Part shown: positions 20,515-55,597 of the stretch, in pieces
How the letters are laid out: every line of letters starts with the position of its first letter
Numbering within the stretch: position 1 is the first letter of the stretch
DNA from: Diplonema japonicum
Taxonomy: Eukaryota; Protista; Euglenozoa: Diplonemea
Assembly (NCBI GenBank): GCA_964019335.1
Contig: OZ025679.1
Location: 310,001 to 374,000, forward strand
Direction: 5' to 3'
Length of the DNA stretch: 64,000 nucleotides
Program-made: the position numbers and the translations under genes
Notes under the pieces: model-generated
Databases searched by the model: none
Told to the model about the DNA's origin: nothing
Seen by the model: the letters and a program-made list of their open reading frames with translations, nothing else

Positions 20515-21658
20515 CCGGCGACAAATTAAAAAAAAAAAAAAATTGCAGATTCCTTCACCGTCTCCTCTTCGTCCACGGCCGGTGGAACTACCGCCGACTG
20601 GCGCTGTTCTACTGTTATTTCTTCTACAAGAACGCTGTGCTCAGCTTTTCCCTGTTTTTCTACAATTTTTTGAACGGGTTTTCCGGGCAGCCGCTGTACG
20701 ACATGTGGGTATGCTCCCTGCAAAAAAAGAAAAAAAACAACCCACAGGTTGTCGCCGGATTCAACGTTTCATGGGCAGCCCTCCCTGTCATCACCGTGGC
20801 CATCATCGACAGGGACATCGTCAACACCAACAACTTACACAATTTCCCGCTGTTGTATAAACACGTATGACCCAACAAAACAAAACCAAAAAAAAAAAAG
20901 AAAAAAAAAAACAGGGCCGGATGAACCACGACTACACCTCAAGAAGAATGGCTCAATGGTATATGAACGCTGTTTTCCATGCAATTCTATGCGTGTATAT
21001 ACCAGTGGTAGCGACACTCGAGGCTAATATACTGGACAAGGACGGAAGGGACTACGGCTTGTTCCATCTGGGTGTCCTTGTGTACACAAACGTAGTGCTA
21101 TGTGTCACCCTGAAACTTGCTCTGCACGTCAGCTCGTGGACATGGCTGCACCATATATTCTTTTGGTGCTCGTTTGCAACATGGCCGATATTCTTGGTTC
21201 TGTACGGCGCTGTGTTCTTCTCTTACGGTACTATGAATGGTGAGCTAGAAGATTCAGCGTCTTGGGCCATGTTCTGGATGATACTCATTACTACTATGTA
21301 CGCCTGTCTCACAAGAGACTTTGTCTGGCGTTATATTTCGTACAGAGTAATGCCATTGCTGCCCCCGTCTGAGCTTGAGACGCTGATCCAAGGCAGGGTC
21401 AATGAACCGGGCTTCCGTAGTTCCTGTACTGTGAGGCCCATGACGCTTCTTAAGATAGTTAGGCTGCTTGACTCTGCGAAGGATGGTTCTTCTTGGGAAA
21501 AACCTGTTGAGCTGCAAGATGTTCATGAACCGTTTAACGAGGATACCGTTGAGGCAAAGAAACGGATGAAGGACGAGGCTCGGTTCGGAACATTTATCGG
21601 AGATTGTGGTATTTCCCCAAAGAGAAACCCCAATGTTCAAAAGAAGGTGAAGGAATAA
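17351..21658 (+). CDS. P4-type phospholipid-transporting ATPase (flippase); introns 19994-20040, 20191-20241, 20478-20548, 20709-20747, 20865-20914
   Basis: [33 protein letters not shown]; [17 protein letters not shown] is restored across an intron. Confidence 0.96.
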
Positions 21659-30019: not shown

Positions 30020-33000
30020 ATGGGGTGCACAGAGAGTAAAGACCCGAAGGCGAAGGCGCCACCAAAAGCGCAGGTTCAGGTCCAGCCGCCTGCTGCGAAG
30101 AAGAAGGAGAACCAAGCTTCGGCAAGCTCGGCACCGAAGCAAACAACGGCTGCAGCAGGGACATCAGACCCGAGTGTAGGGTCAGGATCACCCAAAAGCC
30201 CCTCACAGGCACCGCCAACAAAGACGCAGCAAACGAAAGGGCGGCGGAGCAGCCCTACCATCCCATCAATCCAAACGAACTGGAAACAAGCCCCGCTGGC
30301 GAAGGTTGGCTCCTGGGCGCCGACCGTCCGTACCCTCAACGAAGACATCGCACCCACAGAGACTGTGAAGCCCCCTGTGTTCAAGGATGGCATCCCCAAC
30401 ATCGACCTTGTGGGCGTCGATCTGAACAACTTCAAGAAGGAGCCCCCCATTGACGAGAAACCTGACCCCTTCGTGCACACCATGCGCAAGTCGCCAACAT
30501 CTGCCGAGTGCGACCTCGCCGTTCAGCTGGGCATCGACCCCACAAAGGAACCCAACCTTGTGTATCTCGCCCGTGAGCTCATGAGTCTCCCTGCCCCCAT
30601 TGGATGGGAAGAGATCTCACACAAAGGCGAGCATCTCTTCCGCAGAGTAAACGCCACCGAAGGCCAGCTGGAGCATCCTCTCACGGGCCACTACCGCCAC
30701 CTCGTCCACGATGCCAAGAACGCTATTGATCAAGAGCAGCCCTTCGCCTCTCCGAGGAACCCCAAGAAGCTCGATTACTTCACCTTTTCGACGCCCTGCC
30801 ATCTCTTCCTAAGCGACTACCAGAAGAACGACGGTGCCTTCGTCGACTGGAACGACAAGTTCCAGAAGCTGTGGGGGTCGTCATCCATCCAGCCGCACCA
30901 GTTGTCCGACAGGGAGAAGGCCATAGTCAAGCTGCTGAGTGATTTTTCCGAGGAAGCCGAGTACGCAGCTGTCGAGTTTGTGCACCAGACAGGGACCGGC
31001 GACAGGAACGTGCGGATGCGCAAAGGGAACCTTCTCCTTTCGTACCAGAACTCTGTGGACAACATGCACTTCTACGGGTCGCGAGAGCTTGCCGTAAAGA
31101 TGCACCAGCACGAGATGATGGGCTACAGGTGCGTCATGTCTGCAAACCTGATCGACTTGCACGTCCCGCTGCACTGCACTGTGTCGTACCTTGGGAACAG
31201 GGTTACTGTTGTAGCTGCCGTACCACTGACGGACCATTCTATGATTCTGGGTCCTAAGGACCCAAGTGTCCCCCCCAAAGACAGGCAATATATCGGAACA
31301 GGTAGTGAGGTGGAGTCCCTGCTGGAGATAATGTCCTCTGACTTCAGGTTGTCTCAACACCGAACACCAAACATGCAGGTGGTGAAGGTAGGTGCTGCGA
31401 CTACTGAGGCTCACTCAGGCACGGACGGGCGGTATTATGTGACACAAGCCAGCAGAACGCTTCCCTGCCTGCCTGTCGTGCAAGTGGACACCAAGCGATT
31501 CCGACCGGAGCTGGTGAAGACGTACAGACAGACTAAAGGACTCATGAACTTTTCCACCATGTCCGAAAAGGAGATGCTGGCAGACCTTCAGAACTACCTG
31601 GACAAAGACACAATAGACTTCTTTGCCAACTGGCTTGTGTCCCCCGACGGGGTGCAGGCAACGAACTCCGCCACCGACATGGCGTCTGTGTTCCACCATT
31701 TCGGAGTCAACATACGGAAGATATGTGTCGTCTACGACAAGCTGAAAGATATGCTCGACAAGCCTAACGCGGACCTGCCCGTCGTGGAGAGTAGGCTGCA
31801 GGACTTCCAAGCAGAGATGTTTTCCAGAGCGCTGAAAACCGCCGTACGGAGCAGCAACAACCCTGTAGAGGCATTCGAGGCCTTCATGGAGGACCCCGTG
31901 TACCAACTGAAACCCATCGTGAAGGAGAAATTCGGATGGACGCCCCCCGACATGGTGCAGGTGGACAAGGAAACCGTCTTGAAAAAACTGGCAAAGATGC
32001 TCAAGTCCGTGCTGCACACGTCGCGGGATTCGCAAGGGAACCTCATGCTCAACGAGGTGGACCTGAACCATACCGTTATGACGAAGAACGATAAGCCCCG
32101 CCCTACTCAACCTATTTTCTCCTACTCCCGAGGGTACTGCAGGTTCCGGCCTGAGATCCTGCGTGCACTGAACCGGTCGCAGACAAGCACCCACATCAGC
32201 AGCGACTCCCTGTCCTCCGAGGGCCTCGACGGCGACATCACTGTCGACGCAGCGAACATGGAAGCACTGCTGAGCGAGGTGCTCCTCAACGAGGTCATTC
32301 CGAGGTTCGCAAAGGACATCCTGACACGCCCCCCGGAGGACCAGGATATGCTGTGCAAGCTCGCCCACGAGAACGGCATCAACCTGCGGTACCTGGGCAT
32401 AACGCTGCATTACTTGAACGAAGCCAACGACCCGAACGATTGGAGGATCGTAAAAAACAGCGGCGGTGTCCCTTTAGCGGTGGACGCCGTCAAGGTGGAG
32501 ATGTACGCACGTTCGTTCCTCTCATTCTATGAGGACAGGGTGCAAGGGCGGACTTACTCCGATGCGTGCAGGATTGCAAGGAATGCGTTCCAAGCGCTGA
32601 TCGACGACCCTGTGTGGCTCACTCCGAGGATGTATAGCAAGTTCACGTGCCCTTCGAAGTTCTCGATCCCTGCCGCCGATGTGCTGATGGCTAGGTGCAT
32701 CGAACTGTGCGGTGCCACTGTCGTGATGAAGGACCCCGTCACGGTGGAGTCTGTGGGCGTCAAGCCGGTGATGAAGGTGATGGCGATCCCACCGCACCTT
32801 CGAACAAGGTGGCTGATGGAGACCGACACACTCGACACCAGCATTCTGCCCGCCGTGGAGCACGCGCTTGTCGACCGTTGCGACGCGCGGCCCAAGGGGA
32901 CCACCTCGTTGCCGCTGTTGGCGTTGCTGTCATTGTTGTACCAGCGTTGGGAAACAGAAGAGCCGGGCAAAAAACAACAGGAGCTGCTAGATAGAAGGCA

Positions 33001-34898
33001 GACCATGGTGAACACGACAGACCCGGCCTCGGAGGAGCATGGCCAGGCGAACCTACTGCTCGGCGAGTATTACAACGATATCGAGGATTATAAGCAGGCG
33101 GCGCGGTGTTTTTCGCACGCGTACTCCGTGCTGGACAAGAGGGGCTCCAAGGACGGTGCCCTCACGGCTGCCCTAGGGTTGGCGCAGGTGCTGAAATCGT
33201 CCGGTGACGACAAGCAGTCAATGGAGTGGTTCGCAAGGTCGCGCGACCTGGCCTCGAACATGGAAGGTGTTGGGAACGAGAAGATCGTTGAGATCGACAC
33301 CGTCACAGCTGCGGCCTTCGCACACGAAGGGCGCTACCACGACGCAGTGAAGTACTACACACAAGCCATCGACATGCACGAAAAGTCCAATGGTGAAGAT
33401 GAAGGTCTTGCAAAACTCCTCGAGGCCAGAGCCAGAGCACACTACAGCATGTGTCGCTACCCCGACTCCGCGAGAGACTTTGAAAGGTATCACAAGAAAC
33501 ATGAGAAATTTGAAAATAAACCACAGAGCCACGCACATCTACAACAAGGTCCACGGTCGCGACTGTATCTCCATTGCTGATGTGGCGGTGTGCCTTGGAC
33601 AGATAAGGTCCCACGAAGGTGCCTCGAAGGAGGCCAAGGTGCATTTCGAGACTGCATTACAAATCTACAAAAAACATCACGGCCCGGTATGTAGCTACTT
33701 CTTCAGGGGGGAAAAAAAAAGAAAAAAAAAACCCCCCATCCAGACTGCGGAGCAAGTGGTTATAATTTTGAATGAGCACCTTGCTCCCTTGTACATGAGA
33801 ATGGAACTCATGAGCCAGCATCATAAATGTCAGCTTGAGGTGTGTTGAAAAGGAAGCAAACTATTTTTCATACGTCTTGTTGTCTTTTGAACAACAAAAT
33901 GTTGTTGATCAGCTGTGAAGCGTTGGGTTTTAGTGACCTCAAGGCTCCACTCTCGTTGTTCGCAGAAAAAAAAAAAAAAAAAAAAAAAAAAAGAAGAAGA
34001 AAAAGAATACCAATACAACCATAGGTTCTGTTGATGACCCACGCTGACGACACGGATCCTGTGGCACAGAAATATTTCGAGGTATAAAGTGGGGAAGAAA
34101 GAAAACGGGAATCCCCCCCCCAGGTTGCCCTGGCATACGAAAGGGAGAACCTCCCAGAGCAGGCTGTGAAGTACTTCCAGCTTGCGCTAATCTCCCACAG
34201 GAAGGTGTACGGCAAGGAACATAAATACACTATAAAATGCTTGGAGTGGTTAGAGCACCTTGGTGGCGCGTATGTCCCCCAGTTATATCTCTTACAAAAT
34301 TAAAATGTCTCCCACAGTGACCCTCAAGAACGACCGCTGATCGTGACAGGCACGTCGCCCCGTTTCGGGTCTCCACGTGTCGACATCCCAAAGCTACCTC
34401 TGGCATCACAGCAGACAGACACTGAGGTTTGGTCTCGAGGAAAAAAAAAAAAAAAAAGAAAATACAACACAGCAACCGATGCCTGAAATCTGCTTAACCT
34501 CTGAAATTACCGATGGGGACGTAGACAGGGAGCTAGCCTACCATCAACAGCAGCAGAAAAAGTACACGCAGGGCAAGCCAGGCTATCAGTCACACTTCGA
34601 CCATCAATCACCCCCTCCTCAAGAAAACCTCCCGCTCCCATATGTGCAGGAACCTTCTTCTTCAAGCAACATGCTGTCGCCTGGGGGTGGTGGTGGTGGA
34701 GGTGCACTGGACGTAGGCCTGACCCCAAGTAGGCCCAGCTTTTATAAGAACGAGAACAACCCCCACGCAAGGTCTGGGGTCGTGCACATGCAGCCAGATG
34801 CATTGAAAGGCTCACCACCAAGCGCACTGCTGGATGCCAATTATAAGGGAACACCCGGCTCCCCTTCGTTTTATAAGTATGTGATGAAAGAGGAATAA
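30020..34898 (+). CDS. Acylated CEP164-like WW + Clu domain + duplicated Clu-central + TPR protein; introns 33487-33526, 33687-33743, 33840-34024, 34082-34123, 34270-34317, 34427-34472
   Basis: MGCTES; LGIDPTKEPNLVYLARE..LPAPIGW..HPL; HVPLHCTVSYLGNRV and EAHSGTDGRYYV; HFGVNIR/HENGINLRYLG; TPRs continue in frame over introns. The last two introns are less certain. Confidence 0.85.
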
Positions 34899-36427
34899 AG
34901 AATTTAAAAAAAATCCCCCCCCACAGACAAGAACCCCGCACTATCCGTTCCATTCTGTTCAGATCAGGGATAGGTTCCTTCAGTGCAATTCCCGTGGCGC
35001 AGGATATAGGTGAATCGGATACCTCATCAGAGTGGGATTGATCTGGTTTTTTTCCCTTTCTTTTTTTTTTTTTTTCCCTTTTTTTTTATTTTCTTATAAA
35101 GGGCAGCAAGCTTTTGGCCTCCAGCTCAAGTCCAAGGTGGGTAACGACACCTCCCTCAGGCGAGTTGCTTCCTCATGTTGTAGTGACCCGACAAGAGTAT
35201 GAGAGGTGTTCCCACTGGGTCCTGGTGTTGGCCGGCTTGGAGCCATTGCACTCCCCAAAAGTACTCGTGATCTCGTCACCCTGACATGAGATCTTTTTTA
35301 AAATATCGGGCCAGGGTTGCTGCGAAGGGGCTGGCAACACACACCTTTTCCATGTCTCGCCTTTCTTAAGAACCCGTTTCACCGTTTTTAGAGGAGTCAC
35401 CACGGAGTTTGCCGACAGCCAAGCAAGGGACAGGCTAGCACTGCCCCTGAGGTAACTGGAGGGGCGGTTTGTTATTTATTCTAATTTCCATCTGAGCACG
35501 GTTAAAAGTTATTCTTTTTTCTTTCGGGATTAAAAAATCATGTAAAAAAAAGGGGGGGGGGAAGAAAAGAAAGTAAGAAAAGAAAAGGGAGGGGGGAGAA
35601 GGGAAACTGTATCCTATATATTGTGTTGCCATAAGTTCCTACATACTATTGTTTATTTTCTTTTTTTTTTTGCTATTGAGAAAACCAAGAACCTCCCCCC
35701 CCTCCCGTTTCTTAAAAAAGGCGGAAATATAGTGTGGATGGCGTACTTTGGGTACTTATAAGGCCGAAAAAAAAATGAAAATAATAGTGTCAAAAAAAAG
35801 AAGAAGAAAAATACTCCGAGCGTTCGCCCACCTCCGGTCCCTTTCCCCTCCCCCCCTTTTTTTATTTGGGTCTGGCGGGATATTCCCCCAGAAGCCCCCC
35901 GAAATATCTGATATTACATATGCTTACGCACCTCTATAGACCGTCATTCTAAGTCTGGAAAGATTCCAAAGGGTACAGAAGAAAAAAAAGAGCGTTTTGT
36001 GGCGCATCAGAGCGATTCAGTTCCTGTTGCTTTTGACGGTCTATTGAGATAAGAAGCGTTTTTGTAAACAGCGGAGTGTAGCACCTTCAGTCCACACTTT
36101 GAGTTTCTCCTTTCTTTTCTTTTTTTTTTTTGTAAAGCTGATGAGCGCGCTTTAATTTTTATTTGAAAAGGAGAAAAAAAAAAGAATTCAACAAAATATT
36201 TTTTATCTACATTAAAATTCTTATTGGCTGGAAGGAAAGGCTTCTTTTTATAGACATGTGATAGGCTAGTTGCCCTTTTTTTTCCCTCCATCACTCGACC
36301 CATATCCCCCATTTTTATTTCTCCTCCCCCCCCCCCCCCCTGGAATCAGTGTTCCGTTACTACCACAGGTTACACTCGAAGGAAGACAAAAAGTATTTAA
36401 GAAAAAAGAAAAGAAATACATCAATCG

Positions 36428-37903
36428 ATGAATGACAGAAGTCCCAAGAAGGCTGCAGTGCAGTACCTGTCGGAACACCGAATCCCTGCTGTGATGGAAC
36501 ACCTGGTAGCTGAGCTGGTGCAGACGAGGCCCGGAGAGGATGCCCTGTTCAGGACGATGGAGAGAATCTTGAAAAAGACTTGTACCACACGGTACAAGGA
36601 TTGGAGGACACGTGTGGAGTCGATGAAGGAGGGGGGCTTTGAGGAAGGGCTCTCCTTCACCGTCCCCGAGAAGCCTGGGAGGTCTGGGTCAGAGCTGCTC
36701 CCTGGTGGCATGGAGAGGCCTGTGAAGAAGGAGGACTGCGAGGAGTTCATCCGCCTTGTGGGGGAAGCACAGGCTTGCTGCGTCAACGAGGCACTTCTGG
36801 ACGGGACCTTCACACTCCCTGCGAATGACATCGCGGAAGGCAAGCTGATGTCGCTGGGCTACATCAGGAACTCGCTGAACATCATGATCGTCACCCAGCA
36901 CACACAACAGCAATGGGACAGTTTCGGTCTGGTCTGGGCAGCCCCCAAACAAGGCCGATGGGAGGGCCTCATCACGAACGGTTTGACGAAACGTGTTGCC
37001 TTCACAGACAAGCTGAAGTTCTTGTTGGAATCCAAGTCAGCCATCGATATCGAAGAGGCGCGCATTCTGGAGGAAATCGTCCGCTCTGAGGGGATGGAGC
37101 CTGCTACAGAGATCTCTCCAAACCACAAAAGTTCTCAAAACCAGCTTAATAGAATGATGTCAGGGAATGATTTGAAAACCCTCCGCAACAAGACGGACAT
37201 TACGAAAGAAGAATGGGAGGCCTACAACATCACGTGGTCTGCCCCGCCAGTGGCGATGGTTCAGAAGAAATGCGGGGAGGCGAAGCCTGTGGCCTATCGT
37301 GAGAGGATGTCGTATTTTGCAGCATGCGATGAGTACACGATGCAGGGCGGGAATGTTACAATTGACCTGGTCAGGAGGTTCTCTCCAACCCATTTCGCGA
37401 AGGACCTGTTTTCACCGAACTCTCTTGAGGAAGGGTCAAATGAGGGTGAGGGCAACGAGTCAGGTGTACCATCTTCCATTCCAACGGCTAGACCTTCGCT
37501 GTGGCAAGAGCACTTGGACACATACAGGCAAGAGTTCGAACCTATTATAGAAGCACTTGAAGAGGTTGACTACGACAGTGAAGAGTGGGAGGAGATGGAG
37601 GTTCGTTGGTGTGTCTACATGAATGGGGAGAAGATGGACCTCATTCCGAAGGGAGCTGTGACCCCTGTTAAGCTAACCGACAAGGCCATCTACTGTGACA
37701 TTGCTAGGAAGACGTTGAACCGCACACGCCCCGCTCCAACGCAGATCACCATCCCGCCGAACACCACCGAAGCAACATGGGAGGACCTCAACATAACATG
37801 GTGCGCAATCTCCGATGGCGTCATCACCGATATCATCCCCAACGGCAGGTGTATCCCGGTTCACTTTTCGATGAGAGATTTTTACCTCGAATCCCAATAT
37901 TGA
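36428..37903 (+). CDS. RIIa/DPY-30-like docking domain plus five HECT-small-subdomain-like repeats, copy 1
   Basis: 491-aa intronless ORF; YLSEHRIPAVMEHLVAELVQTRP; repeats such as LSFTV...ELLPGGMERPVKKEDCEEFIRLV. Confidence 0.8.
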   Translation: MNDRSPKKAAVQYLSEHRIPAVMEHLVAELVQTRPGEDALFRTMERILKKTCTTRYKDWRTRVESMKEGGFEEGLSFTVPEKPGRSGSELLPGGMERPVKKEDCEEFIRLVGEAQACCVNEALLDGTFTLPANDIAEGKLMSLGYIRNSLNIMIVTQHTQQQWDSFGLVWAAPKQGRWEGLITNGLTKRVAFTDKLKFLLESKSAIDIEEARILEEIVRSEGMEPATEISPNHKSSQNQLNRMMSGNDLKTLRNKTDITKEEWEAYNITWSAPPVAMVQKKCGEAKPVAYRERMSYFAACDEYTMQGGNVTIDLVRRFSPTHFAKDLFSPNSLEEGSNEGEGNESGVPSSIPTARPSLWQEHLDTYRQEFEPIIEALEEVDYDSEEWEEMEVRWCVYMNGEKMDLIPKGAVTPVKLTDKAIYCDIARKTLNRTRPAPTQITIPPNTTEATWEDLNITWCAISDGVITDIIPNGRCIPVHFSMRDFYLESQY

Positions 37904-38226
37904 GTGGAGGGGGGGGGGGAGTTTTCTTCTTATCTTGTCTTCTTTCAAAAAAAAAGGAGTCCCGGGTGTTTTTTCTTGTTTTTTGATGAAAGGGCAGTAC
38001 CTCCCTTTTTTTTTAAAGAACATTTTTGTTCTCTCTGTTTCCACAGATAGCTTTTTTTTTTTTTTCTCTCTTGTTTCTCGTACTTTTTGTGAGGGGACGC
38101 CTCGTGGATGTCATTATTTTTTCTAAAACTGTTAGTTAGGTTAGCTTCCTTGGTTATTGCCGTTTGAGGAATTGCCGCGCTCACAGTGATATCGAATCTC
38201 TCTCTTTTTCTTTTTTGTTTTTTAGG

Positions 38227-38776
38227 AGGTGGTGGGGATAACATGGAAATATAAGAAGTACATCAGATGTGTTGTTCGCTGTTGACCTCCTCGTCGGTCA
38301 TCACCGGTAGCGCCCGAGTGGAAGAACGTAACGCAGATGCTCAGGGTGACGAACAGGCAGCAAACTGCACGAGCGCAGAATCTTGGTTACCCGGGACGCC
38401 CCGGCTAGGGTTGAGCACACCGCACGCATTAAGGACACGACGCGGAACGCAAAAGAAGCTACAACTCGGCCGGGGAGCGCCCCCTGTAATCAAGTAGGTA
38501 GTTCGTGCTTCATTGCACGCTTAACGCCACCTAGTGTTGCAATCAAAGCCCCATTTTTTTTTTTTTTTTTTTTTTTTTCAAGGTGGTGGGGATAACTTGG
38601 AAATATAAGAAGTACAGATGTGTTGTTCGTTGTTGACCCCCACGTCGGTCATCACCGGGGTGACGAACAGGCAGCAAACTGCACGAGCGCAAAATCTTGG
38701 TTACCCGGGACGCCCCGGCTAGGTTGAGTTGCACACCGCACGCTTAATGCCCCTTAGTGTCACAATCAAAGCCCCA
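38227..38776. repeat. Two direct copies of a non-coding repeat (38227-38553, 38581-38776), possibly retroposon-like
   Basis: Shared aggtggtggggataac...caatcaaagcccca; copy 2 has two internal deletions; T-runs on the flanks. Confidence 0.85.
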
Positions 38777-38790
38777 TTTTTCTTTTTTCG

Positions 38791-38832
38791 GCGGGCCGTT
38801 GCTAACCACTTCGTTCCTATCATAGTGAATTT
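38791..38832. repeat. 42-bp exact repeat, also at 43967-44008
   Basis: gcgggccgttgctaaccacttcgttcctatcatagtgaattt lies downstream of both duplicate genes. Confidence 0.9.
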
Positions 38833-39347
38833 CTTTTTTCCTGACTGTGCACAAACAAAAACAGTTTACCTGTCCGAACATAAGCCTCCTGGGGCTGTGT
38901 CTTACCGTCGTGCGAGAAGGCACACACGTCCGGCTGTGCACAAACAACAATCAACCGACTCCCTTTTTTTTTTTTTTTTTGCGGGGAACAAAAAACTGAT
39001 ATTCTTTATCTTTAAATTAATATATGCAACTAATGCTGAGCAAAAAGAACTTTTACAGCTTTTTGAAAAAGAAAGATCTCATTTGCCCCCGGCAAGACAT
39101 ATAGACATAAAGGAAAAGATTCTCCCTTTTTTTGTAATGTTCAGGGTTTACTGCTTCAATCCTTTTTTTCTTTCCCTTCTTTTTCTTTTGGTTTTGTAAC
39201 ATGTAGTACTTATCTCATGGTTTGTTCGCATGACTCAAATGATAATATGGTAAAAGGTTTGTGCTGATTTTTTTTTCGAACAAGGGGGGGGGGGGGGGGG
39301 AGAATACCAAGCTTATTCATCATACCATTTTTTTAAAGTTGAAATTA

Positions 39348-39749
39348 CTGTAAAGTGTCCGACAGACAAACTCCCAGGCGCCAAAGTGAACCGGGCATTG
39401 TCAGTCCGGGAGTTTTTCTTAAGCGGGACCCCCGTTTTTTTTTTTGCCTGGGTGGGGGTAGGGATAGGCCGGGTAGGTAATATCCCCCCCCCCGTATTTT
39501 TTCTTTTCTTTTCGCCTTTTATTCTAAGTAGAGACAAGGGGGACGTTCCAGAACAGGAATCTCTAAGCTTTTTGCTGCACATGAACAAGCAAGTGAATAG
39601 CCGAGAAAATGAACTCAGAAATACAGTGACGTTGGTGGGTTTCTTTGCAAGTCAGCCCAGAAGCCAGGCCGCCAGGGGGTCAAGAAGAATTCCCGGACGG
39701 ACAAACTCCCGGACGTGAAAAAGACTCCGGACGGTCGTTAACTTTACAG
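39348..39749. mobile_element. MITE with CTGTAAAGT TIRs and TA flanks (Tc1/mariner-like)
   Basis: ta|ctgtaaagt ... actttacag|ta, with subterminal gacaaactccc/ccgga repeats at both ends. Confidence 0.7.
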
Positions 39750-40073
39750 TATTTTCTTGCAAGAACGAGTCTTTGACTTGTCTAAACAAAAGGGGAACGT
39801 TGGCAACGTGTTTCGGGTTGACAAACTTGGTAATTGAAGCGCAAATAAAAAGGGAAACTCTAGTTCTACACCAAAAAGCTAAACTCTTCTTTTTTTTTTC
39901 CCCTCCCTCCCTTTTTTTTTTTTTTTTTTTTAGCAGGGCGCCGCCAACACCGGCCTCCTTTAACTCATATATATTCTTTTTTTTTTTTTAAAGTCATCAC
40001 AAGATTCATAGACTGGGGGCCTTTTCTCTGCCCTGTCTGCATCGAGTTCTTTGATGATGTACTTTAGTTCTTT

Positions 40074-40790
40074 CTAGCTCGTGGACGCACACGTAGCAAA
40101 TACACCCTCCGGTGTGCTCCTGAGCTCATATGCACCTGTAAAATCCGGAAACTCAAGAATTTTCTTTTTGTACGGGCCAAAGACATCAGTAACTACATGC
40201 ATGGCGCACCGTATCGTATTGGTGATGTTACCTATTTGTTCCACAGTTTTAATTGTTGTGGAACGAGGCACCCAAAACCAAAAAACACGAGAGAGCACAC
40301 CAAAGTGGCTGTCCCTGTTGTTTTTGCCGTGTTTCTCCCCCAGAAACCACAGGGAAAACGTCCGATCGGGATATACATAACGAAGACCAAAAAGAACAAA
40401 GTAGCAAAATTCCTTTGCACGAAAGTGACGCCCACCGTCAGTCCAGAGTATCCACTCCATTTTTTTCTTTATTTTTTTCTGTGCCCATGCTACTGTGGAA
40501 CAAGACTTTTCCAACAGTAAGGCCAGCTGCCCTTATTTCATCATGTGTGATGTGGTCAAGCCTCATGCCTCTGACCAATTGGCGCCGTGTGGTGTCTTGT
40601 TGGCTACTATATCAACCAGAAAATGATAGCAGAAGTGCCTCTAGAAGTTCCCCTTTACACACTACGCCACAAACTAGTGCAGCACAGTCGTTGCCACTGA
40701 GCTTCTCAAAAACCTCTGTGGCGAGTGTCCTGATCACCGTGGTGTTCCCATTTACCCTTTCTCGGTCCGAATACCATTTTTTTTACCCCT
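40074..40790 (-). pseudogene. Degenerate DDD/E transposase fragment, Sola2-like
   Basis: WTDGGRHFR ... FLGEKHGKNNRDSHFG in ORF 40074-40514; upstream DHITHD motif lies in another frame with a stop; the only plausible protein relic on the minus strand. Confidence 0.65.
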
Positions 40791-41051
40791 AGCTTCTCAA
40801 CAGCAAGTTTAAAAGCATCCATTTTTGTCACCCCCTCTTTTACTGAATTTGTGCAAAGTGAAAAAACCCATTTTTGCCCCTAGGACTGAATTTTCTGGGT
40901 ACCAGTAACACTCACTTTCCCATTTTCTGGGGTGTTTTCTTTCCTAATCTGGGCCGGGAAAGTTGTAGGATTTTTTTTTTTGGGAAAAAGTACTTAGAGA
41001 AATATTGAAAGTGTCAATTGGCCTCATTTTGGGGGTTTTGAAACGATGCCA

Positions 41052-41099
<48 letters not shown>

Positions 41100-41331
41100 A
41101 TAAATCTGTCTCGGCCAAGACTGCTGCAGTGGGGTGGAGGAAATCAAAATTTGCTTCAGTACAGAAAATGCACCTAACGACACCCCTCACACATTATCTC
41201 TGCCAGGGGGAGGCTGGTGCCCTCTCTCGTGCAAAGAAGTTGTGTGTTCTCCTTCTCTTCCTTTCAAAAAGAAAAAAGGATTGTGCCGACGTAAAGTAAT
41301 AAGGTATAAGTTCTTTGCGATTGAGACTTCT

Positions 41332-41756
41332 GGGGGGGGGAGTCATAAGGGGGTCGTTATTTGCCCTTTTTCAGGCTCTTCGCCAAGGGCATTTTGGGCC
41401 CTTAAGAAAACTGTAACCACCCCAAAAGTGCCCACAAATCACCCAAACCCCCGTTTCCCGATGTTTTCCGGCCCCAGAATCATGTTCTAATTTTGGGACC
41501 CCCGTTTGGTACTTTCCCTATGTAATCCTAGGGACATAAAATAGGGGCCCCTAGGATTACATAGGGAAAGTACCAAACGGGGGCCCCAAAATTAGAACAT
41601 GATTCTGGGGCCGGAAAACATCGGGAAACGGGGGTTTGAGTGATTTGTGGGCACTTTTGGGGTGGTTACAGTTTTTTTAAGGGCCCAAAATGCCCTTGGC
41701 GAAGAGCCTGAAAAAGGGCAAAAAGTGGCCCTTTTTAAGGACCATATGACCCCCCC
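41332..41756. mobile_element. Foldback palindrome, ~174-bp near-perfect arms (41360-41533 / 41549-41722), 15-nt spacer
   Basis: Direct reverse-complement match with about three mismatches; outer G-run-gtcata / tatgac-C-run ends. Confidence 0.9.
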
Positions 41757-41758
41757 TA

Positions 41759-42125
41759 GGGCTACGTTGTCGGCGTACGCGTACGCAGCAAAATCTGAAA
41801 AAGTGCGTACGGCGTACGGCTGTGCGTACGGCTCCTTACAGGTATAGGGCTTACGTTGGAGACGCATGTACGTTTCCGCAATGAAATTGGCAATGTATCC
41901 CATAGTCTGGCTCTGTCCTGTGGTGTTGCGGTTCTCGAAGTACCACGCGTTGTCAACTGTGCAGATAACGGCGTTTAGCACGTTCTGCTGGGTGAATCCT
42001 TGAAGCCGTCAAATGTCATTGTTAGCCCATACGCCCATTTCTGATGCAGATCTTGCATCATCGCGGTGTTGTCCGAAGCGTTTGCTTCAAAAAGTGCGTA
42101 CGGCCGTACGCCGACAACGTAGCCC
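41759..42125. mobile_element. MITE with perfect 21-bp GGGCTACGTT TIRs
   Basis: gggctacgttgtcggcgtacg / cgtacgccgacaacgtagccc, TA on both flanks, internal cgtacg repeats. Confidence 0.88.
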
Positions 42126-42346
42126 TAGGGGGGGGGGGGAAGAAAAGGAAAAAAGAATCCAATATTGCTAAACCAACATTGCATGTTTGTTGTTGTCCCC
42201 CCCCCCTTTTTTTTTCCCCCGTCTTTTTCAACTTCTTCCTCTCGAGTATCTTATTGTTTACCTCATCCCGATTTGGTCCCATAACACCGAACAACCAGGG
42301 GTTTCAGGATCTGAACGGGAGAAAAAAAGGGGGGAAATAATATCGA

Positions 42347-43822
42347 ATGAATGACATAAGCCCCAAGAAGGCTGCAGTGCAGTACCTGTCGGAACACCGA
42401 ATCCCTGCTGTGATGGAACACCTGGTAGCTGAGCTGGTGCAGACGAGGCCCGGAGAGGATGCCCTGTTCAGGACGATGGAGAGAATCTTGAAAAAGACTT
42501 GTACCACACGGTACAAGGATTGGAGGACACGTGTGGAGTCGATGAAGGAGGGGGGCTTTGAGGAAGGGCTCTCCTTCACCGTCCCCGAGAAGCCTGGGAG
42601 GTCTGGGTCAGAGCTGCTCCCTGGTGGCATGGAGAGGCCTGTGAAGAAGGAGGACTGCGAGGAGTTCATCCGCCTTGTGGGGGAAGCACAGGCTTGCTGC
42701 GTCAACGAGGCACTTCTGGACGGGACCTTCACACTCCCTGCGAATGACATCGCGGAAGGCAAGCTGATGTCGCTGGGCTACATCAGGAACTCGCTGAACA
42801 TCATGATCGTCACCCAGCACACACAACAGCAATGGGACAGTTTCGGTCTGGTCTGGGCAGCCCCCAAACAAGGCCGATGGGAGGGCCTCATCACGAACGG
42901 TTTGACGAAACGTGTTGCCTTCACAGACAAGCTGAAGTTCTTGTTGGAATCCAAGTCAGCCATCGATATCGAAGAGGCGCGCATTCTGGAGGAAATCGTC
43001 CGCTCTGAGGGGATGGAGCCTGCTACAGAGATCTCTCCAAACCACAAAAGTTCTCAAAACCAGCTTAATAGAATGATGTCAGGGAATGATTTGAAAACCC
43101 TCCGCAACAAGACGGACATTACGAAAGAAGAATGGGAGGCCTACAACATCACGTGGTCTGCCCCGCCAGTGGCGATGGTTCAGAAGAAATGCGGGGAGGC
43201 GAAGCCTGTGGCCTATCGTGAGAGGATGTCGTATTTTGCAGCATGCGATGAGTACACGATGCAGGGCGGGAATGTTACAATTGACCTGGTCAGGAGGTTC
43301 TCTCCAACCCATTTCGCGAAGGACCTGTTTTCACCGAACTCTCTTGAGGAAGGGTCAAATGAGGGTGAGGGCAACGAGTCAGGTGTACCATCTTCCATTC
43401 CAACGGCTAGACCTTCGCTGTGGCAAGAGCACTTGGACACATACAGGCAAGAGTTCGAACCTATTATAGAAGCACTTGAAGAGGTTGACTACGACAGTGA
43501 AGAGTGGGAGGAGATGGAGGTTCGTTGGTGTGTCTACATGAATGGGGAGAAGATGGACCTCATTCCGAAGGGAGCTGTGACCCCTGTTAAGCTAACCGAC
43601 AAGGCCATCTACTGTGACATTGCTAGGAAGACGTTGAACCGCACACGCCCCGCTCCAACGCAGATCACCATCCCGCCGAACACCACCGAAGCAACATGGG
43701 AGGACCTCAACATAACATGGTGCGCAATCTCCGATGGCGTCATCACCGATATCATCCCCAACGGCAGGTGTATCCCGGTTCACTTTTCGATGAGAGATTT
43801 TTACCTCGAATCCCAATATTGA
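42347..43822 (+). CDS. RIIa/DPY-30-like docking domain plus five HECT-small-subdomain-like repeats, copy 2
   Basis: Protein identical to 36428-37903 except R4I. Confidence 0.8.
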   Translation: MNDISPKKAAVQYLSEHRIPAVMEHLVAELVQTRPGEDALFRTMERILKKTCTTRYKDWRTRVESMKEGGFEEGLSFTVPEKPGRSGSELLPGGMERPVKKEDCEEFIRLVGEAQACCVNEALLDGTFTLPANDIAEGKLMSLGYIRNSLNIMIVTQHTQQQWDSFGLVWAAPKQGRWEGLITNGLTKRVAFTDKLKFLLESKSAIDIEEARILEEIVRSEGMEPATEISPNHKSSQNQLNRMMSGNDLKTLRNKTDITKEEWEAYNITWSAPPVAMVQKKCGEAKPVAYRERMSYFAACDEYTMQGGNVTIDLVRRFSPTHFAKDLFSPNSLEEGSNEGEGNESGVPSSIPTARPSLWQEHLDTYRQEFEPIIEALEEVDYDSEEWEEMEVRWCVYMNGEKMDLIPKGAVTPVKLTDKAIYCDIARKTLNRTRPAPTQITIPPNTTEATWEDLNITWCAISDGVITDIIPNGRCIPVHFSMRDFYLESQY

Positions 43823-45034
43823 GTGGAGGGGGGGGTTTTTCTTTTTGCTTTTCTTCCGATTCGTCAGCTTTAACTTTCGTTTTTGCCAAAACTAATTGTA
43901 CTCTCTTTATTTATTTTTTTTTTTTCCCGAAAAATTGCACAAACTGCTTTTTTTTTTTTTTTTTTTGCGGGCCGTTGCTAACCACTTCGTTCCTATCATA
44001 GTGAATTTTTTTTGGAAAGCGCGGCCGGTGAGCTCAAAAACGCATACCTTAAAAGAATAGTTTTTTGGGGACCAATGTTTCCAACCTCCCTGTGGTGGTT
44101 CCTGGTAATTGTGGTTTGGAGAAACACAAGCGAAAGGGAAACTCTCGTTCTAAAGCCGTACACGTGGGGAAACCTGGACGGGGGTGGAGAGCCCACCCTA
44201 CGCGTGGCGCCAGTTAGCATCGCCCTCAACGGAGAGTCCCTTATCCCATTACATCGGACAAGGAGGTGGCTTCAACAGGTCAGGCAAGTAGCCTCCCCGC
44301 GGCATCGTGCCAGTGAAGCAAGCCTCCCACAACTCTCCAGTTGGTGTTTAATTGCTTCTGTGGCCCCTCTCCCTATTTCAATTTCCAAGCTTTCTTTATC
44401 TCTCCACTTTTACTTTCTACGGGACCACAGGGGACGTGGGAGGCTTCGGGGCGAAGTTTCACAAGGGTGGCCGCTGTGTCACATACTGCATGGCACCACT
44501 AAAATCGAGACAACTTATTTTTCTTTGCTTTTTTTCCAAATAACAAGTTGGTTAAAAATGATAATAAACTTGCGTTAATTGTGCCGAGTAACAATTTACC
44601 TCTGCAGGGTTTTTGCCTTTTGCTGCCCCCCCCCCCCCCCCCCCCCTTACTCGAGCGATACTAAAACGGCGGGTTTTCCCTATTATTATTTTTATATACT
44701 TCGCAAGCAACAATGACGCTCTCCTCTCTGTTTCCTTACTTCCTTTATCAAACTCCGTCATTTCCCTTTTTTTGCTATTCTCTACTGTCATATACAAAAC
44801 AAAAAAAAAGAAGAAAAATCCTCCCAAAAAAAAAAAGAAGAAGATTCCACCCGAAAAGGATTCTTCCGTGTTCCTGCAGGAAGAATACCCGCAAACCCGG
44901 GTTTTGCGGATCTTTCTTTTGTCACTTACACAAACCACCCTCCCCCCAATGACAAGTGGCGGAAATAATTTTTTTTTTTTTTAAATCGTTTTACAGCTAT
45001 TTCCTCCAGGATCTCAAGTCCCCCCTGCAAGAAC

Positions 45035-47743
45035 ATGAGGGCGGTTATCGCTGCAGTGCTAGCAGCAACTCTTTGCGAATCGCGAGAAGTGGTGAATTTC
45101 GACTTCGCATGGCGGTTTTTCAAAGGGAATCTACAATGCACCCCAGGCAGCTTCATTGAACAGAACGGGTACAGATGCGACGGGCTGCACTTTGCAGGGA
45201 ACGCCACCGCACAAGCTTGCAAAGACATATGTTGCAACGACCCGCAGTGCAGGGTGTGGCAATGGCTGAACGGAGCCCAGCAAAACGGGGGGTGTTGGAT
45301 TGGTGAATGCAGCTCAAACCCCATCCCCGACCAAACATGGGTCGGCGGCGTAAAGACAAACAACGTAACATACCCCGCCTCCCACCATGAGTACGATGAT
45401 GCCACATGGGAGGTTGTTGACGCACCCCACGATTTTCTCATAGGCAGCGCGGTCTCCCCTTCTGCTGTCCCTGACCAAGGGTACATCCCGCGAAGCGATG
45501 CATGGTACCGAAAACACTTCATAATCCCGGAGTCATGGTCGGGAAGGACCATTTGGATATATTTTGAGGGGGTTTTCAAGACAACCACGATGTACCTCAA
45601 CGGGGTCCCGTTGGGCGTGCACGAGTCGGGGTACACTTCGTTCCACTACAGAATCGACAATGTTACATCATTGAATTACAACACGGCGAACGTATTGTCG
45701 ATCTTCGTGGACGGGACGGTAGGGACGGGCTGGTGGTACGAAGGCGCTGGTATATACAGACACGTGCAGATCGTCGCTTCTGACAAAATACATGTTGATG
45801 TTGACGGTACCTTCGCGCCTGCAGAGTTGTTGGGGGACGTTGTGAATGGGACGGCTCCTGCGGTGATCTACGCGTCTTCTTACGTTGTTAACGATGCGCA
45901 GCCTCCTTCTTCTGCCGAGGTCGAAGTGGCTTTTGTACTGTACGACCCGTCCACGTCGACCATCGTTGCAAGTGGAACCAGCGAGACGAAAACGATAGGG
46001 TCGGTAGGCGTGGGTTTCAACGCAACAGTGAGCATTCCCTCCGCGAAGCTTTGGTCTGTTTCAAACCCGAACTTGTACGTCCTGTCAAGCATTGTGAGGG
46101 TCGGCAACAATATCGTCGATGTGGTCAATACAACAGTCGGTGTGCGGGGTATTGAGTACACGGCCGACAGTGGTTTCTACCTGAATAACGAGCATGTGAA
46201 GATACGGGGTTTTTGCGACCATAATAATTTTGCGGTGGTCGGGATGGCGGTTCCGGACCGTGTCAAGCTCTTTGCTGCGCAGTCCTTACGTAGCATAGGG
46301 GGCAACGGAAGGCGTATGTCGCACAACCCACCCGAGCCTGTCATGATAGACATCTACGACAGACTGGGCGTCCTCGTCATGGACGAGAACAGACAGTTCG
46401 GCAACAACCCCGCCTTCGTCATGAACATGGGCGCCATGGTGAAGCGCGACAGAAACCACCCCTCCATCGTGATCTGGTCGTATTGCAACGAAAATGGTTG
46501 TGGAGGAAACGCCACCGCCGGTGCACCATTTCGTGACATCACGTACAAGTACGACGGTACCCGACCCACGCTTGGGAACAATGTTTACAACACGAATCTG
46601 AACAAGTACATGGACGTGCAAGGGTTCAGCCACATGGCGAGCTCGGAGTTTTTGAAGTACCACTCGCAGTTTCCTAAAAAACCAACCTTCGCATCGGAAT
46701 GCTGTTCATGCGAGTCTATGCGCGGCGAGGATGTGTCGAGCTCTGCAGACGGCGGCGTCATTCAGAACTTCAACGCGGACTGCGTAGCAAGCCAGACAAA
46801 CGCATCCGACGGCCTACCCTTCATGTCCGGCACTATGGTGTGGACGCTATTCGATTACTTCGGAGAATCGCACGGTTGGCCGCACGTGTCGTCTATGTAC
46901 GGGCAGTTCGACGTCGCTGGGTTTAGAAAAGCCGCTTCATATTGGTACGAAACATGGTGGCCGTCTACCCGCGGTGACATAGTCCCGTCGCACACGTGCC
47001 ACATTGTGGAGCATTGGGCGAAGGATGTCGGCGGTCCTTCACGCACCGTCCATGTCTACACCAACGCACCGAGCGTGGAGCTGTTCCTCAACGGGGCCTC
47101 ACAAGGCGTGAAAACCGTTCCCACCCTTGGGTACGGACAGTGGGACAATATACAATACGCACAAGGCCGTCTTGACGCAAAAGCAATGGACGGTTCAGGC
47201 AGGGTAGTTTCAACTGATTTTGTAGTGTCCGGGGGTACGCCTAGTCGGTTGGTGTTGAAGGTGGACGCGCCTTCTCCGGCGACAGGTACTGGTGCTGTTC
47301 TGTACGGGGATGGTCAGGATGTTGCTCTGCTCCGTGTTGAAGTACAGGATTCTGAGGGGAATGTTTTGAACACCGCGAATAGTCAGAATGTGACCTTTGA
47401 GGTGGTGTCAGGCCCTGGTAGGGTGTTGGGCGCGCACAACGGTGACCCGAGGAATCATGTTCCTAATCATAGCCAGTCGTGCGCTGTGATGCATGGGTTG
47501 GTCAGAGGGGTTGTCCAGGTTACGGAGGATTACTCGAAAACGCTGGCGTCGCGTCAGCTCCTCACGAAGATCGACGTGGACTCCGGGCGGAGGACGAAGA
47601 TCGTCACCACTAACGAGCAGCCCTCGCCCATAGTTGTCAAGGCGTCGTGTACTGGATTTTCGCCGGTCACAGTTACCATCTCTGTTTCTGCTGATCCGTC
47701 TTATAGCGTGCTTGATTCAGCATCTGCCTTTGTTCGATTCTAG
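45035..47743 (+). CDS. Secreted glycoside hydrolase family 2 (beta-galactosidase-like) with PAN/apple-like insert
   Basis: Signal peptide; WYRKHF, YFEGV, SGYTSF, WYEGAGIYRHV, RMSHNP, RDRNHPSIVIWSYCNE (acid/base Glu) and FASEC (nucleophile Glu); intronless. Confidence 0.95.
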   Translation: MRAVIAAVLAATLCESREVVNFDFAWRFFKGNLQCTPGSFIEQNGYRCDGLHFAGNATAQACKDICCNDPQCRVWQWLNGAQQNGGCWIGECSSNPIPDQTWVGGVKTNNVTYPASHHEYDDATWEVVDAPHDFLIGSAVSPSAVPDQGYIPRSDAWYRKHFIIPESWSGRTIWIYFEGVFKTTTMYLNGVPLGVHESGYTSFHYRIDNVTSLNYNTANVLSIFVDGTVGTGWWYEGAGIYRHVQIVASDKIHVDVDGTFAPAELLGDVVNGTAPAVIYASSYVVNDAQPPSSAEVEVAFVLYDPSTSTIVASGTSETKTIGSVGVGFNATVSIPSAKLWSVSNPNLYVLSSIVRVGNNIVDVVNTTVGVRGIEYTADSGFYLNNEHVKIRGFCDHNNFAVVGMAVPDRVKLFAAQSLRSIGGNGRRMSHNPPEPVMIDIYDRLGVLVMDENRQFGNNPAFVMNMGAMVKRDRNHPSIVIWSYCNENGCGGNATAGAPFRDITYKYDGTRPTLGNNVYNTNLNKYMDVQGFSHMASSEFLKYHSQFPKKPTFASECCSCESMRGEDVSSSADGGVIQNFNADCVASQTNASDGLPFMSGTMVWTLFDYFGESHGWPHVSSMYGQFDVAGFRKAASYWYETWWPSTRGDIVPSHTCHIVEHWAKDVGGPSRTVHVYTNAPSVELFLNGASQGVKTVPTLGYGQWDNIQYAQGRLDAKAMDGSGRVVSTDFVVSGGTPSRLVLKVDAPSPATGTGAVLYGDGQDVALLRVEVQDSEGNVLNTANSQNVTFEVVSGPGRVLGAHNGDPRNHVPNHSQSCAVMHGLVRGVVQVTEDYSKTLASRQLLTKIDVDSGRRTKIVTTNEQPSPIVVKASCTGFSPVTVTISVSADPSYSVLDSASAFVRF

Positions 47744-48445: not shown

Positions 48446-49434
48446 ATGGGTCCTGCTGAAGGGTTGATTACCTTTCTAACCGCGATGCCCCATGATCTGT
48501 GTTGGTTGGAAAGGGCGGCAACAGGCGGCGGCCTTGGGAAAGACCCGCTTTTGGAGCATTGCCTGCTTAGGGCAGAGAACGGCGAAGTGGGCACAGTAGA
48601 GGGTCTGAAACAGGCTGTTTTAACCGTCATCCTCCTAGGAGTGATGGGAGGGGTCTTGTACTTGGTGAGATGGATAAAGTTGTTAGCGAGAAAATCCGAG
48701 GATGAAAAGACAAGGGAGCTGAGAAAACTGGTCCCGGTCCAGAAGAAAGATTCGGAGCTAACCGTGGTTCTAGATTTGGACGAGACGCTGGTGAGCTTTG
48801 GGGACAACGCATTCGCCAGCAAAGGGACGGACGGAGTGAGGCTAAGGCCACGCTTGAAGAACTTCCTCGATTTCTTAGAGGAAGCCGACTTTGAGGTCAT
48901 TATTTGGACAGCAGCTACGAGATCTTACTCAAAATGCGTTCATGAGGCTTTGGCTGCAGTCAACCCCAACGTTATTCACCACAGGCTGTACCGTACCAAT
49001 TCGTGGTACACTGCCGATCACGTCAAAGATCTCAGAAGGTTGGGCCGTGACCTTGATAAGGTGGTGATGGTTGAGAACCGCGCTGCCTCGGGGCGTTTGC
49101 AGCCCGACAATACTATTCTAGTCCCGGACTTCACGCACAGAGGCGGGGGGTGCAGGGGCGGCGAGCAGGATCATGCCCTTGACCATGTGACATCCCTCTT
49201 GAAAGGCTTGGTCATGTCTAAGCAGACCGTGCCAAATTTTTTGAAGAAGACCAAGCTGGCTCGGCACATTCATGCTTCAAAGGTGATGATTTGAAAAAAG
49301 AAAAAAAAAAAAAAAAAAAAAAAAAAAGAAAAAAAAAACAGATTGAGGAAGACCCCAGTCACGCTGTGTTCCATTATGTGAGTGGGAAGTACGATTCTTA
49401 TATTACTGAAGCGTCTGGACCGAGGGGTCCTTGA
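48446..49434 (+). CDS. NIF/FCP1-SCP-type HAD phosphatase with one TM helix (Tim50/Nem1-like layout); intron 49283-49341
   Basis: VVLDLDETLV, RLRP, WTAA, RLYR, KDLRRLGRDLDKVVMVEN. Confidence 0.9.
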
Positions 49435-54502: not shown

Positions 54503-54856
54503 CCGGGGGTAAAAGAAAATGTAGTCTTTGAGAAAAGACTTCTGCATCTTTCCCTTTTGGTTTACGTGCATCAGTTCTACAAACGGAAACAACGAAAATA
54601 AAAAGAAAAAGGACTCCCCCCTATCCCGTCAGTCACTTGACACTTGTGTAGTGTAGAGGCCCCCTTCTATTCCCTTTTTTTCTTTTTTTGTTTTTTGTTT
54701 TTTTTCCCTCTCGGGTGACGAGGCGCAGAGAACTGGGACCATTGCAGGAAGCTGACGGCTAAGCTTTGTCGGCATAAAGAAAACGCGCGCTCAACATAGA
54801 AAACTGCCCACCCACGGTATTGGTCTCATTACTTTGACCGTTTTTTTTTTTTTTTT

Positions 54857-55597
54857 ATTTCACTCTTCAGAAATTACTTCACGCACTGGGGGGCCCATTA
54901 CTTCACGCTAAATCTCATTACTTCACGGTGAAATAATGGCCTGTTTTCCGTGAAGTAATAGGGGGTTTCCGTTAAATAATATGCCTCGGTAGGCCAATTT
55001 TTGCCTCGGTTCGGTTCCCAGTGGGGCTACTTTTTCCTCTCAATTTGCTATTTCCCCCCAGGTTCAGCTCAATTGGCCAACTTTTGCCTCGGCTCAGTTC
55101 CAAGTTGGACTACTTTTTCCTCCCAATTTGTCCACTTTTGGCTAGGCCTTGTTCCCAGTTTCTGTGGGTAACTCTTCTGTGGGTAAGGGTAACTTAGTCA
55201 GCTTACCCAAGCACCCCAAAAGACTTCAAAATACCGAAGCAGCAGAAAAAAAAGAGCCAGCGGCCGCGCCAGGTATGGGAAGGCTTGATTAGAGATGGTG
55301 ACAGTGGCAATGCCAGCGACAGCGGCAGCTCTTAGTCAACAAAAGGAGGAAAAACAACTTGTATTGTAACCTTTGTAACCCCTCTCTTGTTGTACCCCTT
55401 GTCACCCTGTTGTGCCCCTCGTGGTGAAGTAATTTCAGAGTGTCGTGAAATAAAACCACTTACCTACCGCCAAGTAATGACTTTACCGACCTCTCGGTTC
55501 CGCATTTTACCATCTCGGGCCCTGCGGGCCCTCGACGGTAAAATGCGGAACCTCGAGGTAACGGTAAAGTCATTACTTGTTGGCAGTAAATAGCTAT
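54857..55597 (+). mobile_element. Helentron/HINE-like non-autonomous element, copy A (741 bp)
   Basis: Sits in T-runs with no TSD; terminal and subterminal asymmetric IRs; 18-bp hairpin stem 55471-55488/55562-55579; near-identical inverted copy at 60632-61311. Confidence 0.85.

Follow-up and report, generated by a model that had tools for sequence, protein, structure and literature searches.

Can the part of a HECT ubiquitin ligase that contacts the ubiquitin-conjugating enzyme (E2) have a life apart from the rest of the ligase? This question is raised by a locus of the diplonemid Diplonema japonicum, which lies in a window of 64,000 nucleotides (assembly GCA_964019335.1, contig OZ025679.1, positions 310,001 to 374,000 of the forward strand; all positions below count from the first nucleotide of this window). 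A preliminary description, made from the sequence alone, had read positions 36428-43822 as a single gene for a protein of five repeats resembling the E2-binding subdomain of HECT ligases, carried on a docking and dimerisation (D/D) type anchor. The region instead holds two near-identical open reading frames (ORFs) of 491 codons each, one at 36428-37903 and the other at 42347-43822; 2 of their 1476 bases and one residue are different. This duplication, a wider protein family and a conserved linker motif had all been overlooked. We know of the HECT small subdomain only as part of a catalytic domain.

Five repeat units and the HECT small subdomain

The five fragments by which the repeats had been recognised were all located in the ORF 36428-37903. 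A unit profile rebuilt without this protein recovered all five units at 15.7-65.5 bits, compared with 6.9 bits for the best domain among 300 shuffles, in a test that is partly dependent since the members of the rebuilt profile had originally been collected by a profile seeded from this protein. All six pairings of units 2-5 score above chance (z 5.3-14.8 against 2000 shuffles). Unit 1 compared with units 2-5 gave z values of -0.3 to 3.3, significant in one pair of four and not with units 2, 3 and 5; taken alone, it is the best Pfam HECT match among the units (E 5.6e-4). The whole protein matched Pfam HECT with 32.1 bits (E 1.2e-7), the best stretch covering profile positions 95-148 of 306, and hhalign to a true HECT fragment (P0049) gave 96.9%. 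Searching PDB sequences with the family profile returned 63 matches at E up to 1, the best 60 of the 63 being HECT ligases matched in the same short region, over a span of only ~60-75 residues. No significant match was found by phmmer against PDB sequences, and none at all in NCBIfam.

A full unit comprises ~75-80 residues and consists of a leading helix, an acidic loop, a hairpin and a closing helix. The core fragments of the preliminary description belong to this unit, from which it had omitted the leading helix. Units 1 and 4 are complete, the hairpin of unit 3 is shortened, and unit 5 has no leading helix and a closing helix that is cut by the stop codon, the C-terminus lying 3 residues beyond the unit. 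The leading helix of unit 2 was placed from spacing alone, with I, L and M at -17, -13 and -10 relative to the conserved W, a spacing shared with unit 4.

The fold was examined in an AlphaFold2 model built from a 20-sequence alignment (mean predicted local distance difference test score, pLDDT, of 66.9; the single-sequence fold, at 32.7, was unusable) and compared with 48,161 chains. The model is confident for units 1, 4, 5 and part of 3, and not for residues 126-193 and 307-364. All of the best 14 rows of the structural comparison were HECT ligases that agreed in family and in region, with Z values that are individually modest. Superposition on the HECT small subdomain, which the preliminary description had put forward as a check, succeeded for both complete units. 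Residues 364-433 (unit 4) aligned with HECTD3 639-710 (Z 8.6, root-mean-square deviation (rmsd) 2.9, 69 residues), with WWP1 (Z 7.8) and with E6AP 630-703 in the E6AP-UbcH7 entry 1c4z (Z 7.6, rmsd 3.2), these three superpositions spanning rmsd values of 2.4-3.2 over 64-69 residues, and residues 56-129 (unit 1) aligned with Tom1 3045-3122 (Z 6.8). Unit 4 was also superimposed on HACE1 687-751, and HACE1 676-751 is described as the small subdomain with a putative E2-binding site (PMC10520629). Units 2, 3 and 5 were assigned to the small subdomain by sequence profile only. Foldseek against the PDB ranked HECT domains first, none at E <=0.001; comparison with a viral fold library produced no meaningful match, and a search of the Atlas with the whole protein no usable one.

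Profile matches and predicted fold together show the units to be homologous to the small, E2-binding subdomain of the HECT N-lobe (PF00632 ~85-150; E6AP 630-703, HECTD3 639-710, HACE1 676-751), with which they share sequence homology and the same predicted helix-hairpin-helix fold. On the same sequence and model comparisons, they may derive from a ligase of the HECTD3 or large-HERC type. The small subdomain of P0049 is itself much like the repeats, and among the structures compared HECTD3 matches best.

The absence of a catalytic C-lobe with its HTCFN-type motif, noted in the preliminary description, was borne out: the motif [HS]TC[FS]..L does not occur in any frame of the window, and neither does a further unit or a SAM domain. 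We therefore rejected a HECT E3 ligase identity; with both the large subdomain of the N-lobe and the catalytic C-lobe missing, the protein is unable to act as a HECT ligase. Compared with such ligases, the family has freed the small subdomain from the large subdomain and C-lobe and repeated it 2-10 times, and no ubiquitin thioester can be formed by the HECT route.

The wider family, its heads and its linker motif

The five-unit profile was searched with HMMER against 1.84 billion representatives and gave 50 matches, 46 of which, this protein included, constitute a family. Three of the others are immunoglobulin/fibronectin repeat proteins (P0023, P0041, P0052) and were removed; the fourth, P0049, was removed as a true HECT fragment and retained as a comparator. 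Between 2 and 10 units are present in 42 of the 46 proteins, the remaining four being single-unit fragments, and the units are not colinear between relatives. None of the 46 carries the C-lobe motif, none was matched by the large-subdomain flanks of P0049 at E up to 1, and 33 of them end <=60 residues from a unit. Repeat scores in these proteins sum past the Pfam HECT threshold, and family members can therefore inflate counts of HECT ligases.

Among 20 clusters looked up, six name an organism and all six are euglenozoan, namely Hemistasia (from the prefix 'Hpha'), Flectonema, Namystynia, Trypanosoma brucei, T. melophagium and T. conorhini. Among named relatives, the closest comes from the diplonemid Flectonema neradi; in an alignment of this protein with residues 16-582 of a 997-residue Flectonema protein, identity was only 23%. 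A quick tree of 86 of the 163 units, taken from 17 selected proteins, lacked the resolution needed to date the family or find its root. Word-index protein searches retrieved only the gene itself and nothing among longer proteins, and none of the 41 pattern matches in a metagenome locus scan was confirmed. A protein of 42 residues (P0003) clustered with the two gene products in the sequence collection and appears unrelated by eye.

Two subfamilies differ in their N-terminal heads. Subfamily A, to which this gene belongs, has a D/D-like head and 4-10 units in full-length members, often followed by a SAM-like domain (8 of the 46 family proteins have one at the C-terminus); compared with its subfamily, the protein encoded here is short and lacks that domain. 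Subfamily B, of ~23 proteins (family hits in the range P0017-P0053), has 2-3 units behind a DCTPP1/MazG-like head, a domain that is absent from this protein; one listing gives 24 members, partly by construction and with P0027 probably misassigned. The head profile of subfamily B matches dCTP pyrophosphatase 1 at E 5e-23, and the head looks degenerate in several, trypanosomatid-like members.

In the head of this protein, the model places helices at residues 8-16, 19-33 and 37-67 with pLDDT values of 77-93. Residues 8-66 superimposed on the D/D domain of PKA RI-beta (4f9k; Z 4.6, rmsd 2.2, 57 of 57 residues aligned) and the head also on a radial-spoke head-neck chain (8wzb_A; Z 3.9, rmsd 1.6). 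Its nearest Atlas clusters were RIIa, Dpy-30 and DUF5586 at 0.78-0.82, under the 0.9 mark. Neither PF02197 nor PF05186 matched any of 12 family N-termini in Pfam, and the head profile found no D/D chain among PDB sequences. Because of these two negative results we call the head D/D-like, as a lead from the predicted fold and the language-model comparison with the Atlas, and do not claim membership; of the architecture first proposed, the repeats stand and the anchor survives as a lead. Of the D/D anchors (PKA RIIa/RI, Dpy-30, radial-spoke head proteins), it is RI-beta and the radial-spoke chain on which the predicted two-helix head superimposes; unlike such anchors, the protein has no Pfam RIIa or Dpy-30 match, and HECT-derived units take the place of the cyclic nucleotide, kinase or EF-hand cargo.

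The linkers of the family contain a 13-residue motif, (L)FSP[TS]HFxxDLF[SA]P, present in 74 copies in 38 of 47 proteins examined, where shuffling gives an expectation of 0.01. Positions of the F7, F10 and P12 type are 84-97% fixed; FSPxHF is fixed by the search pattern itself. Of 162 units, 31 have a PxSP site directly ahead of their leading helix.

Members of the family have been met in trypanosomatids under other descriptions. A T. brucei TREU927 protein of the family (P0058, XP_803427.1; 59,813 Da, pI 6.02) matches Tb927.9.1350 (59,814, 6.024) in the supplement of PMC10361982. That source gives Tb927.9.1350 the curated Gene Ontology terms basal body, pro-basal body and response to drug; in bloodstream forms it is assigned to the class 'microtubule structures 1', in procyclics to 'unknown'. 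Both T. congolense copies are 'unknown' in the one stage in which they were detected. Tb927.9.1350 may be the same gene as Tb09.160.0350, given the term 'response to drug'. The latter is a hypothetical HECT-domain protein that was a hit in a melarsoprol screen (PMC6071061). No row for Tb927.9.1350 occurs in the readable supplements of PMC11971395 or in PMC11190437.

Tb927.9.1350 is the orthologue of Leishmania mexicana HECT14 (LmxM.26.2650), which was listed with HECT13 (LmxM.33.3400) among 'possible pseudo-HECTs' that have partial domains of 60 and 69 residues and no catalytic cysteine (PMC7647121). LmjF.26.2650, whose orthology to HECT14 is presumed from its number only, is a metacaspase interactor (PMC4632311). 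HECT14 and Tb927.9.1350 belong to the family described here, their cluster representative (P0037) having three units and the linker motif; their head is of the DCTPP1/MazG-like and not of the D/D type, and they are therefore paralogues of this gene and not orthologues. The available part of PMC7647121 gives HECT14 one partial domain of 60 residues and mentions no repeats, motif or family. The literature searched, mostly without subscription papers, contained no description of tandem isolated HECT small subdomains and only one passing reference to 'partial HECT domains'. A family of tandem, isolated HECT E2-binding modules on oligomerising heads, euglenozoan as judged from the six named clusters of 20, is thus apparently undescribed.

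What the units may bind

We favour, tentatively and at a little under an even chance, a reading of the protein as a non-catalytic, anchored, dimeric and multivalent scaffold with putative docking sites for E2 enzymes and no transfer of ubiquitin. It is favoured because seven putative groove positions keep a hydrophobic residue across 162 units (145-162 of the 155-162 cells that are filled), the two positions that follow the last helix are variable (hydrophobic in 66 of 160 and 90 of 158), and 129 of the 162 units have a helix-loop segment of net acidic charge. We take the seven positions to map onto the E2 groove of E6AP reported from the E6AP-UbcH7 structure (Huang, 1999), and the two variable positions presumably lie packed against the large subdomain of a true HECT. 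D/D and DCTPP1 heads, and likewise SAM, are oligomerising folds. The acidic helix-loop segment would suit the Lys-rich hot spots listed for E2s (PMC5095918). The basal-body terms and the 'microtubule structures 1' class of the T. brucei paralogue, although of the other subfamily, agree indirectly with an anchored protein.

In such a scaffold, the head would dimerise and dock on an AKAP-type helix of some structure of the cytoskeleton or the flagellar base. Of the units, the complete ones (1, 4 and probably 2 and 3) would retain an E2-type groove and may bind E2, or E2 charged with ubiquitin, weakly and with avidity. E2 might thereby be concentrated for nearby ligases or withheld from them, and the Ser-Pro sites of the linkers, with the FSPTHF motif, could gate access to the units. 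The anatomy first reported for this protein was largely right, and the E2-scaffold function predicted from it is plausible.

Several points weigh against the scaffold. The conserved hydrophobic positions are also the core of a small fold, and their conservation is no proof of E2 binding, which for every family member is proposed from residue conservation. In this protein, unit 5 is incomplete, unit 3 shortened and unit 2 unfolded in the model. The D/D assignment fails at the sequence level, and a Z of 4.6 lies within the range of common helical matches. Basal-body localisation belongs to the subfamily with the DCTPP1-like head, and the class is 'unknown' in procyclic T. brucei and in T. congolense. 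A complex was also predicted between unit 4 and a Ubc4-type E2 taken from a metagenome locus as a substitute; with alignments unused and controls not folded, its two scores of 0.00 count neither for nor against E2 binding.

The linker motif offers a different ligand. It might occupy the former E2 groove of its own or of another molecule and so drive autoinhibition or self-assembly, in which case units, motifs, oligomerising heads and SAM domains would build a self-assembling cytoskeletal network with Ser-Pro phosphorylation as its switch. The abundance of the motif and the fixation of several of its positions speak for this, as do its spacing (a median of 42 residues after one unit and 70 before the next) and the alternation of motifs and units in the longest members (8 motifs with 10 units, 6 with 6). 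A likeness, judged by eye alone, also links FSPT and LF.P to two loops of Ubc4-type E2s, WSPA and YPFKPP, which we take to be the HECT-contacting loops. On the other side, the motif-bearing residues 307-364 have pLDDT values below 50, the pattern finds no motif in two six-unit trypanosomatid members of the D/D subfamily (P0026, P0038), this protein has one motif for five units, and units that have a motif beside them show only weak residue differences from the others, confounded by kinship. We regard binding of the motif in place of E2 as unlikely, though it is the strongest rival. Doubtful to a slightly greater degree is that the units are a small fold recycled as a spacer or for an unrelated cytoskeletal partner, with E2 binding lost and no role in the ubiquitin system left. 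Such a history would account for units that are very divergent (unit 1 against 2, 3 and 5), vary from 2 to 10 per protein and lack colinearity, for the degenerate-looking DCTPP1-like head of several members of the sister subfamily, and for the grouping of the T. brucei paralogue with cytoskeletal proteins. It sits poorly with the retention of exactly the E2-binding subdomain, leading helix and acidic loop included, across diplonemids and trypanosomatids.

Since the ORF stops inside unit 5 and has no SAM, and since its identity to the Flectonema protein is so low, it might also be incomplete or in decay, whether as one exon of the gene for a larger HECT ligase or as a functionless short paralogue of a D/D-units-SAM protein of ~900-1000 residues. 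We consider this very improbable: both copies have an open, undamaged frame and a normal GC content at third codon positions (GC3), no additional unit, SAM or C-lobe motif is found in any frame of the window, the C-lobe motif is found in 0 of the other 45 family proteins, and ending close to a unit is the habit of 33 of the 46.

The E2-docking scaffold can be carried further into a bolder proposal, to which we give low credence. A new component of the ubiquitin system would have arisen by excision of the E2-docking wing of HECT and its multiplication into oligomeric, cytoskeleton-anchored E2 sponges; an E2-mimicking FSPTHF motif would fill the grooves until phosphorylation, making local E2 availability switchable at the flagellar base. 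The gp78 G2BR, the Cue1 U7BR and OTUB1 are E2-binding modules without ligase activity of their own. TRIM pseudoligases (10.1101/2024.10.15.614675) and SMAD7 (PMC6063350) are likewise ligase-derived or E2-binding modules without it. All of these are single RING, helix or OTU modules, whereas the present protein is a tandem array of a HECT subdomain.

Gene copies, genomic setting and implications

The features of the locus are collected in Table 1. GC3 of copy 1 is similar to that of neighbouring genes. When 36402-37942 was compared with 42323-43856, little was shared outside the coding sequence, exact identity ended 13 bases past the stop codon, and the flanks were unrelated. Identity limited to the ORF within unrelated flanks suggests that copying was confined to the ORF, by retro-copy or gene conversion, rather than a segmental duplication. 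All four junctions between copies and flanks were recovered in contigs from public runs (X1, X2, X3 and X5), of which X1 and X2, with copy junctions, may themselves be the source of the window; no contig covers both copies. Because the 5' and 3' junctions of both copies occur in these contigs, the duplication is unlikely to be purely an assembly artefact. One contig of run X3 links the 5' flank of copy 2 with the 3' flank of copy 1, which we read as a collapse of the shared 1474 bases; the alternative is a single-copy state in that sample.

Table 1 Features of the two gene copies, with positions in the window
Feature	Position	Strand	Remarks
Gene copy 1 (P0001)	36428..37903	+	intronless ORF, 491 residues; GC3 0.66; present in EukProt
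D/D-like (RIIa/Dpy-30-like) two-helix head, residues ~8-57	36449..36598	+	model helices; Z 4.6 to 4f9k; Atlas lead
Unit 1, HECT small-subdomain-like, residues ~58-125	36599..36802	+	Pfam HECT 95-148/306; Z 6.8 to Tom1 3045-3122; 24.8 bits
Unit 2, residues ~144-207	36857..37048	+	26.2 bits; model pLDDT <50
Unit 3, short hairpin, residues ~246-306	37163..37345	+	15.7 bits; gap at conserved hairpin Leu
Linker motif FSPTHFxxDLFSP, residues 318-330	37379..37417	+	one copy in this protein
Unit 4, complete, residues ~362-436	37511..37735	+	65.5 bits; Z 8.6 to HECTD3 639-710, 7.8 to WWP1, 7.6 to E6AP 630-703
Unit 5, incomplete, residues ~445-490	37760..37897	+	40.8 bits
Gene copy 2 (P0002)	42347..43822	+	same parts at +5919 offset; 2 bases, 1 residue different

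The long ORFs of the window are mostly intronless and on the + strand, with homopolymer-rich spacers between them. Some genes of the window are likely to have introns, since the ORFs 17225-20110 and 20867-21658 resemble, by eye, two parts of one P4-type ATPase. Dispersed high-copy repeats, among them an imperfect palindrome of 363 bases (41360-41722), lie between the copies (38200-42100) and after copy 2 (43930-44500); the window also has an inverted duplication of 653 bases (54841-55493 and 60675-61327, 99.7% identity). Neighbouring genes encode a CLU/eIF3-p135/TPR protein (30020-33580), a GH2 glycosidase with a PAN-like insert (45035-47743) and a NIF phosphatase (48446-49294). No ubiquitin-system gene was found among eight scanned ORFs of the window, no intact E2 motif in the window as a whole, and no Rfam match over 35000-45000.

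Arrays of up to ten stand-alone small subdomains, on two kinds of oligomerising head, mean that this module of the HECT domain has an independent life. If the units do bind E2, the family would represent an unrecognised way to localise or buffer ubiquitination, and would give a testable function to a conserved trypanosomatid pseudo-HECT of the basal body that carries a 'response to drug' annotation. If they bind their own linker motif instead, the two would form a new domain-motif pair of the euglenozoan cytoskeleton.

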